NCBI GenBank assembly: GCA_964469525.1
Contig: CAYXYU010000001.1
Span: 68,508 to 132,507 of the forward strand
Length of the DNA: 64,000 nt
Direction of reading: 5' to 3'
DNA from: an uncultured Rickettsiales bacterium
GTDB lineage: Bacteria > Pseudomonadota > Alphaproteobacteria > Rickettsiales > SXRF01
Made by a program: the position numbers and the translations under genes. Of this stretch, positions 16,851 to 61,689 are shown in pieces; position 1 is the stretch's first letter; every line of letters starts with the position of its first letter. The notes under the pieces are model-generated. The model searched no databases, was not told the DNA's origin, and was given only the letters and a program-made list of their open reading frames with translations.

Positions 16851-16962
16851 GCAAACTCCGGCAATTTTCTGCTTCTTCTATAGCGCCTATGAATTAATTT
16901 ACGGTTAACTAATGGCTTATGCCATTAGAGCCTTTTCATTATTGACCCATCGACATTTGGGC

Positions 16963-17053
16963 GCGAAGCGCCTCACCCTACCTCTCTCCCGCAAGCGGGA
17001 GAGGGAAGCTGCCGCTTCGCGTCAGCGAAGAGGCGGCGGGTGAGGGCATGAGG
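16963..17053. repeat. nested-palindrome repeat (ccctcaccc / ctctcccgc family), compact copy
   Basis: cgcctcaccc...ctctctcccgc-aag-cgggagaggg, then gccgcttcgc-gtca-gcgaagaggcggc, then gggtgagggc. Outer arms are mutually complementary. Confidence 0.7.
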
Positions 17054-26031: not shown

Positions 26032-26086
26032 GACTTGACAAGCCAGCGCCGCAGGCAGATAATCACGGTTTTTCTATTGTTTAATT

Positions 26087-26193
26087 CCCTCTCCCACAAA
26101 GTGGGAGAGGGTTAGGGTGAGGGCACTTTGTTCCTTTTAAGGAAGCGTCGCCCTCACCCCAGCCCTCTCCCGCATGCGGGAGAGGGGGGAAGT
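26087..26193. repeat. nested-palindrome repeat, empty two-arm copy abutting the argD RBS
   Basis: ccctctcccac-aaa-gtgggagaggg tta gggtgagggcac, then a 23-bp spacer, then gccctcacccc ag ccctctcccgc-atg-cgggagagggg. AGGAG at 26194-26198 and the argD ATG at 26202. Confidence 0.75.
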
Positions 26194-26201
26194 AGGAGCC
26201 G

Positions 26202-27488
26202 ATGTCTGCGGTATTGCCGGTCTACCGGCGTTCCAACATCACCATCACCCGGGGCGAGGGAATGTATCTCATCGCCGCCGACGGCAGGCGCTATCTCGAT
26301 TTTGCCTCCGGCATCGCCGTCAATGCGCTCGGGCATTGCCATCCGCACGTTGTGGCAGCGCTTAAGGAACAGGCCGATACGCTGTGGCACTGTTCCAATT
26401 TGTACCGCATACCGGGACTAGAGCGGCTGGCCGAGCGTCTCGTCGCGGCGAGTTTTGCCGACAAGGTGTTCTTCTGCAATTCCGGCACCGAGGCGGTGGA
26501 GTGCGGGCTGAAGATGGTGAGGAAATACTTTTCTTCTTCTCCTTCCCCACTTGTGGGGGAAGGTGGGATGGGGGGGAACTCTCCACATGCTCAGGCATCG
26601 CGTCCGACGCGCCACCCCTCCCACCTTAATCCTCCCCCACGAGGGGGGAGGAAATATAGAATCATCACCATGGAGGGCGGTTTTCACGGGCGCACGCTGG
26701 CCTGCATCTCCGCCGGCGGCAACGAGGTGGCGCGCAAGGGTTACGAGCCGTTGCTGGACGGTTTCGACCGGGGGGAATTCAATAACCTGAAAGCGGTGGA
26801 AAAAGCGATCACGCCCGAAACCGCCGCCATTCTCGTTGAGCCGATCCAGGGCGAGGGCGGGGTGCGCGTGGCGACGAAGGAATTCCTGCAGGGGCTACGC
26901 CGCCTGTGCGATCAGCATGGTTTATTGCTGTTCCTTGATGAAGTGCAGTGCGGCATGGGCCGCACCGGCGCCCTGTTCGCGCATCAGCAGATGGGTATCG
27001 TGCCCGATATCGTGACGGCGGCCAAAGGCATCGGCAACGGCTTCCCACTGGCGGCATGCCTGACCACCGACAAGGTCGCCGCCGCCATGACGCCCGGCTC
27101 GCACGGCTCGACCTACGGTTCCAACCCGCTGGCGATGGCGGTCGGCAATGCCGTGCTCGACGTCATGCTGACACCGGGCTTTTTCGAGCAGGTTGCCATG
27201 ACGGGTGCACTGCTGGAAAACGGCCTGCAGGGGCTGGCGAAGGATTATCCCCACCTGATTGCCGATGTGCGCGGGGCGGGGCTGATGCTCGGCATCCAGA
27301 TGCGCATCGATCACCGGGATTTCACCGAGCAGCTGCGCGGCGCCGGGCTGTTGACCGCCCCTACCGCGGAAGGCGGCGTCATCCGCATCATTCCGCCGCT
27401 GATCGTCCAGCGGGAACATATCGAAGAGGCGTTGCGCATCCTGCGCGGCGTATGCGAGGCCTATGGCAGGGAGCGTTATGCAAGCTGA
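26202..27488 (+). CDS. argD: acetylornithine aminotransferase carrying a 40-codon repeat-derived in-frame insertion
   Basis: 428 aa. Class III aminotransferase blocks (FCNSGTEAVE, GGFHGRT, LLFLDEVQCGMGRTG, TAAKGIGNGFP). Residues about 111-150 (SSSPSPLVGEGGMGGNSPHAQASRPTRHPSHLNPPPRGGR) are encoded by a palindromic element. Confidence 0.9.
   Translation: MSAVLPVYRRSNITITRGEGMYLIAADGRRYLDFASGIAVNALGHCHPHVVAALKEQADTLWHCSNLYRIPGLERLAERLVAASFADKVFFCNSGTEAVECGLKMVRKYFSSSPSPLVGEGGMGGNSPHAQASRPTRHPSHLNPPPRGGRKYRIITMEGGFHGRTLACISAGGNEVARKGYEPLLDGFDRGEFNNLKAVEKAITPETAAILVEPIQGEGGVRVATKEFLQGLRRLCDQHGLLLFLDEVQCGMGRTGALFAHQQMGIVPDIVTAAKGIGNGFPLAACLTTDKVAAAMTPGSHGSTYGSNPLAMAVGNAVLDVMLTPGFFEQVAMTGALLENGLQGLAKDYPHLIADVRGAGLMLGIQMRIDHRDFTEQLRGAGLLTAPTAEGGVIRIIPPLIVQREHIEEALRILRGVCEAYGRERYAS
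26535..26651. repeat. nested-palindrome element inside the argD reading frame (diverged family member)
   Basis: ccttcccc-acttgtg-ggggaagg, ggtgggatgggggg, spacer, ccacccctcccacc, cctccccc-acga-gggggagg. Same hairpin-arm-spacer-arm-hairpin architecture as 26087-26193. Confidence 0.65.
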
Positions 27489-58084: not shown

Positions 58085-59112
58085 TGGATTCACTCTGGCA
58101 ACTTTGGGTGGAAGTAGAGCCCCTATTTTGGCTGGTAGTAAAAATTCTTATGCTCACCATCCCGCTGCTTATCTGCGTGGCGCTGCTGACGCTGATGGAG
58201 CGCAAAGTCATCGCCGCGATGCAGCTGCGCAAGGGCCCGAATGTCATCTCGCCGTTCGGGCTGCTGCAGCCTTTCGCCGACGGGCTGAAGCTGATCCTCA
58301 AGGAAACCATCATCCCGTCACAGGCCAGCAAGCTGGTGTTCCTGCTGGCACCGATGCTGACGTTTACGCTGGCGCTGGTCGGCTGGGCGGTGATTCCCAT
58401 TTCGCCGGACTTCGTCATCGCCGATATTAATGTTGGCATTCTCTACCTGTTCGCCATCTCCTCGCTCGGCGTGTACGGCATCATCATGGCGGGCTGGGCG
58501 AGCAACTCGAAATACGCCTTCCTCGGTGCCATCCGCTCCAGTGCGCAGATGGTAAGCTATGAAGTGTCGATCGGTTTCGTCATCGTTACCGTGCTGCTGG
58601 TCGTCGGCTCGCTGAATCTCGGCGACGTGGTGCGGGCGCAGGCGGGCGGCATCACGCACTGGCATGCGGCGGGCATCCTGCTGCCGATGTTCATCCTCTT
58701 CTTCATCTCGGCGCTGGCCGAGACCAACCGCCATCCGTTCGATTTGCCGGAAGCCGAAGCCGAGTTGGTGGCGGGCTACAATGTCGAATATTCTTCAATG
58801 AGTTTCGCTCTGTTCTTCCTCGGCGAGTACGCCAACATGATCCTGATGTCGGGCATGACTACCATTCTGTTCCTCGGCGGCTGGTACCCTCCGGTCGACA
58901 TGGAGCCCTTCACCTGGCTGCCGGCGCCGTTATGGTTCCTCATTAAGGTGCTGTTCTGCCTGTTTGTGTTCATCTGGGTGCGTGCCACCGTACCGCGCTA
59001 CCGCTACGATCAGCTGATGCGGCTGGGCTGGAAAGTGTTCCTGCCGCTGTCGCTCGTCTGGGTGGTGCTGACTGCTGCCTATGTGGTGTATCTGAAACCG
59101 GGAGCGATGTAA
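58084..59112 (+). CDS. nuoH: NADH-quinone oxidoreductase subunit H
   Basis: ATG at 58084, overlapping the nuoG stop. [16 protein letters not shown]...[19 protein letters not shown]. Confidence 0.9.
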
Positions 59113-59852
59113 TGGCCAAAGAGGATGCATTCGTCACATTGGGCGATGAGCTGCTTTCCGACGAGATGGTGGGCGAGGTAGCCGGCCTGCATGAAGGCGT
59201 GGGAAGCACCCTGCAGCAGGCGGCGGAATGGCTGGTGCATTTCGTGCATATGCTGGGCTATCCCGGCATTTTTATCATGTGCTTCCTGGAAAGCACCTTC
59301 ATGCCGATTCCGAGCGAGGTGACCATGATTCCGGCGGGCTATCTGGTGCAGCAGGGCGAGATGAATCTGTTCATCGTGCTGTTCTGCAGCATCACCGGCA
59401 CCATCGGCGGCGCCGTCTTCAACTATTATATCGCGTTGCATTACGGGCGGCGTTTCCTGTATGCCTATGGCAAATATTTACTCTTCGACCACGACAAGAT
59501 GGAAAAGCTCGACCGTTTCTTTGCCAGCCACGGCGAAATCTCGACCTTTACCGGCAGGTTGATTCCCGGCCTCCGGCATTTCATTTCGTTCCCCGCCGGG
59601 CTGGCGCACATGGATTTCAAAAAATTCTGTTTCTACACCGGTGCGGGTGGGGCCATCTGGATGACGACGCTGCTAGCGGTGGGCTATTTCATCGGCGGCA
59701 ATAAGGAATTGATTCGGCAATACATGCCCTATGTGACCACGGCGGCGATCGCCTCGGTTGTGCTGATGATAGCAATCTATGTCTGGCACAAACGCCGGAA
59801 ACACAGGCTGGCCCGGCAGACGGCCAAGGAGGAATCCGATGGCGTGGCTTGA
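59112..59852 (+). CDS. DedA family membrane protein embedded between nuoH and nuoI
   Basis: 246 aa. Start overlaps the nuoH stop. [16 protein letters not shown]...[18 protein letters not shown] DedA/SNARE-associated signature. 3' end overlaps nuoI by 14 nt. Confidence 0.8.
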
Positions 59853-60327
59853 CCGGACGGCGCGTTCCTTTCTGTTGCTCGAGCTGGTGCGCGGCTTCGG
59901 CATCACGCTGAAATACATGTTCAAGCGGCCGGTGACGATTAACTATCCCTATGAAAAAGGCCCGCTCAGCCCGCGTTTTCGCGGTGAACATGCGTTGCGC
60001 CGTTATCCAAACGGTGAAGAGCGCTGCATCGCCTGCAAGCTGTGCGAGGCGATCTGCCCGGCGCAATGCATCACCATCGAATCCGAGGCCCGTGCCGACG
60101 GCAGCAGGCGCACCACGCGTTACGACATCGACATGACCAAATGCATCTATTGCGGCTTCTGCCAGGAAGCCTGCCCGGTCGACGCCATCGTCGAGGGGCC
60201 GAATTTCGAGTTCGCCACCGAAACGCGCGAGGAGCTCTTCTACAACAAGGAAAAACTGCTGGCCAACGGCGACCGCTGGGAATCCGCCATCGCCGCGAAT
60301 TTATTGGCCGATGCGGAGTATAGATGA
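59839..60327 (+). CDS. nuoI: NADH-quinone oxidoreductase subunit I
   Basis: ATG at 59839. Two 4Fe-4S motifs [12 protein letters not shown] and [12 protein letters not shown]. Ends LLADAEYR. Confidence 0.9.
60304..60327 (+). repeat. direct repeat DR1 (last 7 codons + stop of nuoI)
   Basis: ttggccgatgcggagtatagatga. Its partner at 60854-60877 is ttggccgacgcggagtacaggtaa. Confidence 0.8.
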
Positions 60328-60338
60328 TGAAAGGAAGC

Positions 60339-60446
60339 GCCCTCACCCCGGCCCTCTCCCGCTGCGCGGGAGAGGGGGAAGTGGTGGTAGCGACGATACA
60401 GACGGTCCCCTCTCCCGTTTACGGGAGAGGGTTAGGGTGAGGGCAC
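60339..60446. repeat. nested-palindrome repeats: solo B arm (60339-60382) plus A arm (60407-60446)
   Basis: gccctcaccccggccctctcccgctgcgcgggagagggggaagt ... cccctctcccgtttacgggagagggttagggtgagggcac. Confidence 0.75.
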
Positions 60447-60852
60447 TTAATGTTTTGTGAGGGCGCTTAGTTATGCGTGAAGGCCATAAGGTAGGTGGGG
60501 CAAGGCGATTACGTCGTACTCTTACCGACGCGGAAAGCACATTATGGTATTACCTGCGCGACCGGAGGCTGTTTGGCTTGAAGTTTCGCCGTCAATGTCC
60601 CGTAGGGCCGTACATCACGGATTTTGCCTGTGTGGAACATAAGATCATTATAGAATTGGATGGCGGGCAACACGCAGAACGACAGGGATATGACCAAAAT
60701 CGTGACCGCTTTTTGCAGCAACAAGGCTTTACCGTAATGCGATTTTGGAATAATGAAGCGCTGCAAAATACGGAAGCGGTATTGGAGACGATTGCGAACC
60801 ATTGCAAGTGCCCTCACCCCGGCCCTCTCCCGCAAGCGGGAGAGGGGGAAGT
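60407..60852 (+). mobile_element. candidate full-length unit of the nested-palindrome family carrying a DUF559 endonuclease gene
   Basis: The A arm (hairpin + gggtgagggc) and B arm (gccctcaccc + hairpin) bracket the DUF559 ORF here. The same arms bracket only 23 bp at 26087-26193. Confidence 0.45.
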
Positions 60853-60877
60853 TTTGGCCGACGCGGAGTACAGGTAA
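60473..60877 (+). CDS. DUF559 (Vsr/restriction-endonuclease-like) domain protein
   Basis: 134 aa. LRRTLTDAESTLWYYLR...FRRQ.PVGPYI.DF.C...K.IIELDGGQH...D..RD.FL...GF.V.RFWNNE. The C-terminus reads through the B arm (CPHPGPLPQAGEGE) and DR2 (LADAEYR). Confidence 0.8.
   Translation: MREGHKVGGARRLRRTLTDAESTLWYYLRDRRLFGLKFRRQCPVGPYITDFACVEHKIIIELDGGQHAERQGYDQNRDRFLQQQGFTVMRFWNNEALQNTEAVLETIANHCKCPHPGPLPQAGEGEVLADAEYR
60854..60877 (+). repeat. direct repeat DR2 (copy of the nuoI 3' end, in frame at the end of the DUF559 ORF)
   Basis: Differs from DR1 at 4 of 24 positions: gat/gac, tat/tac, aga/agg, tga/taa. All are synonymous or stop-to-stop. Confidence 0.8.
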
Positions 60878-60880
60878 CAT

Positions 60881-61063
60881 ATGGATACTGTTGTTATTAT
60901 ATTCATAATATTCATGGTTCTTGCGATAGGCGCTATCGGCTGGATTTTTTACCAGCAGATTTTCCAACATCCTCTTGGGCATGGTGAGGAGGTTCGCGAT
61001 ACCAGAGAACTTACACAGGGCACTAGTTTTCCGCCTGAATTTCCGCTTGGAGGAGAGGATTAA
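60881..61063 (+). CDS. small single-TM hypothetical protein
   Basis: 60 aa. MDTVVIIFIIFMVLAIGAIGWIFY TM helix. AT-rich. Ends 2 nt before the nuoJ ATG. Confidence 0.4.
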   Translation: MDTVVIIFIIFMVLAIGAIGWIFYQQIFQHPLGHGEEVRDTRELTQGTSFPPEFPLGGED

Positions 61064-61065
61064 TA

Positions 61066-61689
61066 ATGACTGAACTCCTCCCCACCTTTGTCTTCTACCT
61101 CTTCGCCTCGGTGACGGTGCTGTCGGGGCTGATGGTGATTTCGTCGAAGAATTCCGTGCATTCGGTATTTTTCCTGATCCTGGCCTTCTTCAATTCCGCC
61201 GGGCTATTCGTCATGCTGGGGGCTGAGTATATCGCGATGACGCTGGTGATCGTCTATGTCGGCGCAGTGGCAGTATTGTTCCTTTTCGTCGTCATGATGC
61301 TGAACGTCAATTTCGAGCAGCTGCGCGAGGGCTTCCTGCGCTACCTGCCGGTGGGGGCGCTGGTAGCGGCCACCCTGTTCGGTGAGATCGTGTTGGTGTT
61401 GTACCTGTCGCTCAAATTCCCCACCAAGCTGGCACCCGCCACCCAGCCGATTCCCGCCGCTACGGAGATCACCAATACCGAGGCGATCGGCAACGTGCTT
61501 TATACCTGGTATCTCTATCCCTTTCAGATGGCAGGCATTATCCTGCTGATTGCTATGATCGGTGCCATCGTGTTGACGCTGCGCCACCGTCCCGGCGTGC
61601 GGCGGCAGAAGGTTTCCCAGCAGCTGGAGCGCAAGCGCAGGGACAGCGTGACGCTGGTCAGGGTCGAAAGTGGGAAAGGGTTATCCTGA
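61066..61689 (+). CDS. nuoJ: NADH-quinone oxidoreductase subunit J
   Basis: 207 aa. Five TM helices. [18 protein letters not shown]...[15 protein letters not shown]. Confidence 0.9.

Follow-up and report, generated by a model that had tools for sequence, protein, structure and literature searches.

The nuo operon of an uncultured Rickettsiales bacterium raises the question of how a gene of foreign composition can come to lie at a tightly coupled gene junction while both neighbors stay whole. The locus belongs to contig CAYXYU010000001.1 of GenBank assembly GCA_964469525.1, of which positions 68,508 to 132,507 of the forward strand were analyzed; this stretch of 64,000 nucleotides (nt) is called the window, and coordinates refer to it. 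In the window, the intact nuoI gene (59839-60327, + strand; 162 residues, with Fer4 domains) is followed by an open reading frame (ORF) for a nuclease of the DUF559 family, and this ORF ends in a second copy of the nuoI 3' end. An earlier note, made from the sequence alone, had read the arrangement as a selfish element of homing type that had entered the end of nuoI. We consider it probable, with moderate confidence, that a repeat-bounded nuclease cassette was inserted at a tight gene junction and is carried inside the operon.

A duplicated nuoI end around a DUF559 cassette

The 3' end of nuoI reads TTG GCC GAT GCG GAG TAT AGA TGA (60304-60327), and that of the DUF559 ORF reads TTG GCC GAC GCG GAG TAC AGG TAA (60854-60877); both encode LADAEYR and a stop codon in frame. 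The two copies, termed L1 and L2, are identical at 20 of 24 bases, and the differences, three third-position transitions and TGA versus TAA, are all silent or stop-to-stop. Their start-to-start distance is 550 nt, with 526 nt in between, and the longest identical run is 8 nt. A degenerate pattern fitting both copies had just these two matches in the window, where shuffled sequences gave an expectation of 0. The two in-frame LADAEYR copies with silent-only differences, as described in the earlier note, were confirmed by this comparison and by the ORF check, and the layout that it gave between them (a solo B arm, an A arm, the DUF559 gene and a second B arm) was recovered by repeat and ORF mapping.

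The duplicated stretch appears to extend slightly beyond these 24 nt. The dinucleotide TG lies directly 3' of L1 and completes a TGATG at 60325-60329, the same stop/start overlap that occurs at the empty sites L085 and L215 described below. Because the TGATG after L1 matches the junctions at these empty sites, the duplication is probably at least 26 nt long. L1, the left copy of the junction, would then comprise the last seven nuoI codons, TGA and TG (60304-60329, + strand), and is now the functional nuoI end. L2 (60854-60877, + strand) is the right copy and lies at the original junction between nuoI and a small ORF; it provides the stop codon of the DUF559 ORF, 3 nt ahead of the ATG of the small ORF.

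The inserted gene is bounded by two inverted palindromic arms on the + strand. Arm A, the left inverted repeat (60407-60448), consists of the hairpin CCCTCTCCCG-TTTA-CGGGAGAGGG followed by TTAGGGTGAGGGCACTT, and arm B2, the right inverted repeat (60806-60852), pairs with it as a 42-nt inverted repeat of 88% complementarity. The hairpin loop of arm A is identical to that of the occupied locus L217 and differs by 1 nt from that of L216. No stop codon precedes B2 in the DUF559 ORF, which translates the arm as (K)CPHPGPLPQAGEGE and then runs through L2 in frame. On the other side of arm A, a solo B-type arm, B1 (60331-60382, + strand), lies with its inner side towards nuoI. B1 is probably a secondary addition, because its counterpart is missing in L216 and L217; together with arm A, it folds into a hairpin of -90 kcal/mol (z-score -7.8). 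B1 and A are separated by a 24-nt spacer (60383-60406, + strand), and the idea that this spacer is a decayed third copy of the nuoI end was rejected (local alignment p 0.4-0.8). The three B copies of the window have a common outer end, ...GGGGGAAGT, and diverge beyond it. The arms had no match in Rfam.

Arm A lies in the DUF559 reading frame, from which it is separated by the TGA at 60458-60460. Because the ORFs of Variovorax homologs start upstream of arm A, the window gene may have lost an arm-encoded N-terminal extension. We also observed a 49-residue ORF (60311-60460) that starts in L1, shares the frame of the DUF559 gene and spans B1, the spacer and arm A; only that TGA parts it from the DUF559 gene.

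The DUF559 ORF (60473-60877, + strand) encodes a 134-residue protein with the Vsr-type PD-(D/E)XK nuclease fold, as indicated by its match to PF04480 (E 8e-44; 148.4 bits against a cut-off of 20.6). The domain covers residues 10-111, which align with profile positions 7-108 of 109, and from about residue 114 the protein consists of the read-through of arm B2 and L2. The product also matched the structure 3HRL in the Protein Data Bank (PDB; E 3e-29). In an alignment of 19 homologs, D50, E61, D63 and H67 were invariant, and the fold marks them as putative catalytic residues of Vsr type. At E <= 0.01, only PF04480 and a sub-threshold PF18741 were found, with no match to the Vsr profile PF03852, and the window protein, a bare domain, showed no sequence match to 3R3P. 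Escherichia coli YcjD is 57% identical to it; since the score against the YcjD equivalog model, NCBIfam NF007294, was 120.1 bits and thus below the cut-off of 218, the window protein is a relative of YcjD and not its equivalog. The closest DUF559 homolog was 62-67% identical. The cassette has a GC content at third codon positions (GC3) of 0.53, compared with 0.77-0.83 in the host nuo genes, and its composition is foreign to the host.

Between the arms, no ORF other than the DUF559 gene matched a family. In particular, no known transposase (DDE, HUH, serine or tyrosine type) was found there, and the 526-nt insert contained no integrase. The cassette is probably co-transcribed with the nuo operon and translated as a coupled cistron, because no terminator-like site was present inside it (60331-60852). 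One weak terminator-like site on the + strand lies downstream, in the small ORF (60924-60938), and two weak promoter-like matches lie just beyond the right end of the cassette.

Empty and occupied nuoI junctions in relatives

The junction was compared across relatives, among which NuoJ gave better resolution than NuoI; the window NuoI was at most 88% identical to the proteins of Reyranella and other Rhodospirillales-like genomes. Three relatives had an empty site. At L085 (NuoJ 82% identical), nuoI ends GAG TAT CGC TGATG GCT, with its stop codon overlapping the nuoJ start; on the P0122 contig (NuoJ 83% identical), nuoI and nuoJ are 2 nt apart; and at L215, nuoI leads through GAT AAG GAG TAT AGG TGATG straight into a small ORF and from there through TAATG into nuoJ. 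The empty-junction sequence, as in L215 and L085, is GAYGCNGAGTAYMGNTGATG. Three other relatives, L216, L217 and the P0247 contig, were occupied at the same point by a cassette of like orientation, whose arm A lies 7-11 nt past the nuoI stop. Both states were therefore found at one conserved site, and the proposed insertion at the 3' junction of nuoI was borne out. At 80 more distant nuoI loci, no DUF559 gene lay between nuoI and nuoJ (0/80). The C-terminal tail of NuoI was of the same type in all 80 of these genomes and nearly always ended in R-stop, and the nuoI-nuoJ gap was mostly shorter than 150 nt.

The small ORF of the window (60881-61063, + strand) encodes 60 residues with one predicted membrane helix and the motif YQQIFxHPLGHGEE, and it is followed by the intact nuoJ gene (61066-61689, + strand; PF00499). 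It had no Pfam or NCBIfam match, and its GC3 of 0.38 is unlike that of the host genes. From this value we had suspected a non-coding spacer, an idea overturned by homologs at the same genomic position: just two, P0242 (E 4.7e-8) and P0244, were found among 1.84 billion representative proteins; both are encoded between nuoI and nuoJ, one on L215 and the other on L216, and have the motif YxQ..HPLGxGEE in common. Judged from these homologs and its position, the small ORF is a real gene that would predate the insertion. Small membrane proteins of 60-84 residues are encoded in the window (60881-61063), in L215 (155-358) and in L216 (937-1173); the start of the small ORF overlaps the nuoI stop in L215, and its stop overlaps the nuoJ start in L215 and L216. 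Because nuoI runs straight into the small ORF in L215, we take L2 to occupy the original junction, and L1 with its TGATG to be the second copy.

The duplicated nuoI end was seen again in L216. There, nuoI ends GAT GCA GGT TAT CGG TAA (..QADAGYR-stop), arm A begins 7 nt later, and the DUF559 ORF crosses the B arm and ends GAT GCG GGG TAT CGA TGA (..VDAGYR-stop). These two copies, c1 and c2, show four differences, all silent or stop-to-stop. The DUF559 ORF is followed by a palindromic element of about 100 nt from a different family and then by a third copy, c3 (TAT GCG CGG TAT CGC TGA), which lies directly 5' of the ATG of the small ORF and carries non-silent changes. The palindromic element has the form CATCCC(T/G)GCGAAGGC ... 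GCCTTCGC(A/C)GG(A/G)ATGAC and is found in L216 at 817-917 and in L086 at about 2900-2995, where it fills the nuoI-nuoJ spacer. A second DUF559 cassette of another lineage, only 43-50% identical to the others, breaks the nuoJ gene of L216 after about 13 codons (1173-1617 of that contig); the contig ends in its B arm.

In L217 and the P0247 contig, neither of which has the small ORF, the DUF559 cassette lies between nuoI and nuoJ. The nuclease stop overlaps the nuoJ start in L217 (T ATG GCT GA), and gene calls together with the protein tail imply the same overlap for P0247. A remnant of the nuoI end in L217 carries non-silent changes.

The cassettes at this junction do not appear to descend from a single arrival. 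DUF559 identity among L216, L217 and the P0247 contig was 73-80%. The window protein was only 57-59% identical to those of this clade, at a NuoJ identity of 71-73%; co-inheritance with NuoJ would lead one to expect about 73%. The window DUF559 protein is no closer to this clade than to the Variovorax homologs, and the sites of its nearest relatives by NuoJ (82-83%) are empty. The window cassette therefore appears, from these identities, to be an arrival separate from that of the L216/L217 clade. On the few genomes available, the simplest reading would be that cassettes reached the nuoI junction independently at least twice and that a third one entered nuoJ, and the nuoI-nuoJ region as a whole holds three different DUF559 lineages in a patchy distribution.

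These observations suggest the following course of events. Ancestrally, nuoI would have led directly into the small membrane-protein gene, its stop overlapping the start codon there, and nuoJ would have come next. The inserted cassette would be the stretch of 526 nt that separates the LADAEYR copies, namely the DUF559 gene bounded by A and B2 plus the extra solo arm B1. On its landing at the nuoI junction, at least 24-26 nt of the junction would have been duplicated. The left copy would complete nuoI, and the right copy would remain at the old junction, where it lends the DUF559 ORF its stop codon 3 nt before the ATG of the small ORF. An insertion that disrupted either gene would not persist, and this would account for such duplications being seen only at tight junctions.

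The DUF559 family and competing explanations

To place the cassette in its family, we used 120 protein homologs as well as loci, about 90 in all, that came from Variovorax assemblies, metagenomes, viral contigs and records of plasmid collections. The typical order was an A-type hairpin arm, the DUF559 gene and a B-type arm; the N-termini (PLSRERERARVRA) and C-termini (PHPxPLPQAGEGE) of the homologs are arms A and B in translation. A hairpin was found upstream in 61 and downstream in 55 of the approximately 90 loci, and the ORF continued through arm B in 43 of 52. Neighboring genes were mostly co-oriented with the cassette (upstream, 40 vs 11; downstream, 28 vs 12), and the first ORF stop overlapped or abutted the start of a long ORF at 24 of 78 loci versus 18 of 145 control frames. 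Many unrelated genomic sites, in Alpha-, Beta- and Gammaproteobacteria and in other phyla, shared the order of arm A, gene and arm B. The junctions included fadB/thiolase, sapF/fabI and, as judged by eye, the end of a 536-residue cysS-like gene and the start of a radical-SAM-like gene. The link between the nuclease and the palindromic repeats thus proved to be general, including at E. coli ycjD, whereas homing to a single site did not: members of the family sit at many different junctions, and even close members do not share one specific target site. DUF559 genes are also approximately 14-fold enriched among genes bracketed by inverted repeats (PMC9881135). In the literature on DUF559, we found no description of the arm-gene-arm unit, in line with the earlier note's view of the element as uncharacterized.

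In the Variovorax-like contigs L195-L214, a beta-oxidation operon has the cassette fixed between its fadB-like and thiolase genes, and the cassette stop overlaps the start of the thiolase gene. The stop of fadB overlaps the called start of the cassette in the L197 lineage and lies 13 nt upstream of it in the L205 lineage. The region of the cassette start, CAAGGACCATGA, is similar to the region in which the thiolase gene itself has its ribosome-binding site and start. A duplication at this junction was considered and rejected as too weak, with only CAAGGAC...CATGA common to both sides.

In E. coli, a B-type arm forms the end of the ycjD ORF, and after it comes an A-type arm, CCCCTCGCCCCTCTGGGGAGAGGGTTAGGGTGAGGGG, with the same consensus as in the window. 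The gene lies between fabI and sapF, which is not a coupled junction, and no duplication of a host gene end was seen there. In K-12 (L194; NC_000913, 1351040-1351500, minus strand), the ycjD 3' end and B-type arm are tandemly duplicated about 100 nt downstream (ETVLENILQELNR / ETVLENIRQGLNR), and an A-type arm comes next. Wherever ycjD is present in E. coli, it is beside sapF; in approximately 38% of the 5,426 complete E. coli genomes, where ycjD would be missing or replaced, the query was matched by its sapF end alone, which is not evidence of a clean empty site. The K-12 record has no repeat annotated beside ycjD, and nothing was found in the literature linking BoxC to YcjD. The arms beside ycjD may be BoxC, a repeat first described near envM/fabI. 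BoxC is listed as an E. coli repeat family of 56 bp with about 32 copies and no known function (PMC2267715).

We then asked how general the duplication is, using a flank-against-flank DNA search with the arms masked (74 metagenome loci) and an end-anchored protein comparison (73 loci). The DNA search revealed two more cases. In L139, a repeat of 17/17 nt ends the upstream gene on the left (..WEIAR-stop) and the DUF559 ORF on the right (..REIAR-stop), where it overlaps the ATG of the next gene (ATGA); in L121, 23 of 24 nt are repeated and include the first codons of the downstream gene, its start codon among them. The plasmid and viral collections added few loci and no further duplications. Three candidates did not stand up to inspection. 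A 25-nt target duplication in L105 proved to be arm B with a 25-nt outer extension repeated on both sides, not host sequence. A conserved left extension beyond arm A (L139, L121, L162 and L102) was also dropped, since only a flanking T and A are conserved across the family; the stretches common to these four probably reflect orthologous loci. The third was the Variovorax junction described above. The earlier note asked whether other DUF559 genes of this genome are bounded by the arms and by duplications of adjacent gene ends; in the loci surveyed, the arms were found generally and the duplications at only 3 of 73 loci.

The silent-only differences between the copies were also evaluated, on the assumption that the left copy is constrained and the right copy neutral. 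The probability that all differences would be silent was 0.013-0.047 for L1/L2 and 0.025-0.045 for c1/c2 of L216, with a combined value of 0.0003-0.002; taken on its own, the window pattern is no more than suggestive. The two copies with non-silent changes are c3, which is not a nuclease tail, and the L217 remnant, which overlaps nuoJ. In L216, all three copies share a lineage-specific Gly codon and CGN for Arg, and both window copies share Glu and AGR. Lineage-specific states are thus common to the copies within a genome, an outcome to be expected from gene conversion or from independent duplication. The earlier reading of the silent divergence as a sign of constraint or gene conversion is strengthened by its recurrence in L216. 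The pattern might come from gene conversion between the copies, from repeated rounds in which the cassette is excised through the repeats and inserted again, from import of one copy with the cassette from a close relative, or from selection on the tail itself; the A/T-ending codons of L1, set against the G/C-ending codons of L2, lean slightly to import.

We favor the insertion of a repeat-bounded cassette on the basis of the observed anatomy, the empty and occupied sites, the arm architecture across the family and the co-orientation of neighbors; the duplication would have arisen during insertion. Several observations weigh against this reading. Long duplications of host gene ends are rare, having been found in the protein comparison only in the window, L216 and L139. 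No short duplication of the target was seen beside the arms either, where conservation is limited to a T ahead of the left hairpin and an A behind the right one. The duplications measure 17-26 nt at a few loci and are not detectable elsewhere, without the fixed length of a target-site duplication at every copy. A neutral right copy should have drifted, and the silent-only pattern would fit a simple old target duplication poorly. Because nuoI-end copies (15 of 18 nt identical) also flank the gene-less element of the other family in L216, it may be the site, or some general process of the host, and not the DUF559 cassette that accounts for the duplication. L217 and the P0247 contig have equal identities for DUF559 and NuoJ (74% each), from which we infer long vertical co-inheritance under purifying selection, which would be atypical of a purely selfish gene. 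The Caulobacter DUF559 protein VsrA behaves as a Vsr-like repair nuclease (PMC12907096). Finally, exact-protein look-ups of the window NuoI and DUF559 protein returned no record, so that the left junction from L1 to B1 has no independent assembly. Given the rarity of long duplications, they do not mark the family as a whole; they occur where the cassette lies in a junction needed by both neighbors, which fits a survivorship filter.

A more specific proposal is that movement of the cassette, and of gene-less doublets of arms, would be driven by the DUF559 nuclease through its action on either the arms or the target; we offer this tentatively, as it may well not hold. Still more doubtful, in our judgment, is the wider idea that DUF559 nucleases mobilize a widespread palindromic-repeat family as a new class of mobile element, driven by a Vsr-fold PD-(D/E)XK nuclease instead of a transposase or integrase. 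Such elements would settle at operon stop/start junctions, sometimes with 17-26-nt duplications that keep both genes whole, would then persist as translationally coupled cistrons, and would have their tails kept in step by gene conversion or by excision and re-insertion. If this were true, the class would include E. coli BoxC, provided that the ycjD arms are indeed BoxC. DUF559 is among the commonest uncharacterized nuclease domains of bacteria, with YcjD as a member, and the candidate BoxC repeats have lacked a known origin or function ever since their first description. The arm-DUF559-arm unit, the gene-less doublets and the independent arrivals yield a testable proposal for both. The locus also shows how a foreign gene can be tolerated in a tightly coupled operon, with the junction duplicated and the ORF borrowing the last host codons and stop, and the silent-only divergence of its tail may be a sign that gene conversion is still going on or that the cassette is repeatedly excised and inserted again.

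The first alternative, which we regard as unlikely, is a replacement 3' end: the cassette would have come from a related genome of lower GC content together with the last 24-26 nt of the donor's nuoI, L1 being the donor copy and L2 the resident one. The route would be an excised circle acting through short homology, or one homologous and one illegitimate crossover, and the silent-only differences, which were found in two genomes, would represent the divergence between two functional nuoI genes. Codon usage agrees with this to a degree. L1 contains the sole GAT and the sole AGA codon of nuoI, and three of its seven codons end in A or T, as might be expected of the cassette (GC3 0.53), whereas all seven sense codons of L2 end in G or C, as in host genes (GC3 approximately 0.8). 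Additionally, L2, which occupies the original junction, resembles with its 3' flank the native nuoI end of L086 (TACAGGTAACAT in the window, TACAGGTGACAT in L086), and the flanking direct repeats would permit excision as a circle with one copy. However, seven codons are too few for codon bias to prove L1 foreign, and we discarded that argument: three A/T-ending codons out of seven are not unusual at a gene end (binomial P about 0.15 by our estimate), and the two codons before L1 (AAT TTA) also end in A or T, the AAT being common to L086. Furthermore, no donor is known, with the closest DUF559 homolog only 62-67% identical; the cassette contains no recombinase; homologous recombination would be poorly served by 24 nt with four mismatches; and the copies in L139 and L121 are identical or nearly so.

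The second alternative holds that nothing moved: DUF559 would be a host repair nuclease resembling Vsr that is in the operon by chance, the arms would be common structural or regulatory palindromes of the REP (repetitive extragenic palindromic) type that gather around it, and the duplications would be by-products, independent of the nuclease, of slippage or template switching at the hairpins of a palindrome-prone hot spot. Caulobacter VsrA is a Vsr-like repair nuclease with a DUF559 domain that is tied to cytosine methylation and DNA damage, with the methyltransferase unlinked (PMC12907096). The long vertical inheritance in the L217/P0247 clade, the constant position of ycjD beside sapF with many genomes matching just the sapF end, the lack of target duplications at most loci, and the L216 element without DUF559 between nuoI-end copies, whose type also fills the L086 spacer, would suit this explanation. 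It is nevertheless quite unlikely in our view, given the A-gene-B order that is conserved over several phyla at many unrelated sites, the patchy occupancy of one site by three DUF559 lineages (including the second, divergent cassette of L216), the foreign composition of the cassette, the gene-less doublets with near-identical arms, and the enrichment of DUF559 among inverted-repeat-bracketed genes (PMC9881135). Vsr itself, which nicks at T:G mismatches, and VsrA have the same fold as the cassette protein (PMC12907096), but the cassette protein lacks a PF03852 match, and conserved arms and patchy insertion are not features of a repair gene.

An assembly mis-join at a repeat or a chance similarity is highly improbable: although the short-read contigs of the same genome break inside B2 and leave the left junction unconfirmed, four Logan contigs of the same organism, from four independent run assemblies and with an identical NuoJ, begin inside B2 and match the window through L2, the small ORF and nuoJ, no chance matches are expected, and the same architecture with a duplicated NuoI tail recurs on the unrelated metagenome contig L216.

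Related elements and other features of the window

To understand where a repeat-bounded nuclease cassette would stand among known systems, we compared it with several elements that share parts of its organization. The closest functional analogy may be the REP/RAYT systems (REPINs, REPtrons), despite a different class of enzyme. In these, a usually single-copy gene of nuclease type is flanked by inverted, GC-rich palindromic repeats that are also scattered as singlets and inverted doublets, and inheritance is largely vertical (PMC3116915). In contrast, RAYTs are HUH/Y1 transposases related to IS200/IS605, and the cassette gene encodes a Vsr-fold DUF559 protein of about 110 residues; the cassette repeats are unrelated in sequence, the cassette ORF reads through its arms and sits in operons, and a few cassettes are flanked by duplications of 17-26 nt of host gene ends. 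By fold, the closest relatives are the Vsr-like or EDxHD homing endonucleases (I-Bth0305I, 'fractured genes'), which likewise have conserved essential-gene targets and patchy sites (PMC3239194, PMC2677866). Unlike the cassette, these occur in phage introns, inteins and split-intein loci, carry extra DNA-binding domains, and have neither arms nor target duplications.

The islands that target the 3' ends of tRNA, tmRNA and protein genes also leave the gene intact with a displaced copy of its 3' end beyond the insert. The likeness to tRNA-targeting islands that was drawn earlier holds only for this outcome, as such islands are kilobases long and have tyrosine or serine integrases and defined attachment sites, whereas the insert is 526 nt long and contains no integrase, and L1 and L2 share no identical run longer than 8 nt. 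A pair formed by an inverted-repeat transposon and its MITE (a miniature transposable element with inverted repeats) would likewise have terminal inverted repeats (here, A/B2) and gene-less derivatives in the same genome, but the cassette has neither a target duplication of fixed length nor a known transposase. In Rickettsia, palindromic elements of RPE type are inserted in frame in coding genes and are not known to have an associated nuclease gene. As in those genes, palindromes are tolerated and translated inside ORFs here (compare the ArgD-like gene below), but the cassette carries a nuclease gene and sits at gene ends.

Upstream in the operon, a gene for a membrane protein of the DedA/VTT family (59112-59852) lies between nuoH and nuoI and overlaps both, and the same arrangement was found in L085 and L086. 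Elsewhere in the window, the arm family is represented by a gene-less A-B doublet on the + strand (26086-26195; A at 26086-26128, B at 26146-26195) with the inner ends of its arms facing each other. These arms are 95-100% identical to those of the nuoI cassette, and the doublet is likely, from this identity, to be a gene-less derivative of a cassette. It lies between an upstream ORF and an ArgD-like gene, and its outer end provides an AGGAG ahead of the ATG of that gene. The same family is also represented at 16960-17050 (+ strand) by a variant arm in which a palindrome is nested. The ArgD-like aminotransferase gene (26202-27488) itself contains an in-frame palindromic doublet of about 120 nt (approximately 26529-26650) that belongs to a second arm family. 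The inserted peptide reads SSSPSPLVGEGGMGG...HLNPPPRGGR, and the doublet is flanked by a direct repeat, (G)AGGAAATA, which is translated as RKY on both sides. This second arm family also forms the tails of the DUF559 homologs in L156, L158 and L160.

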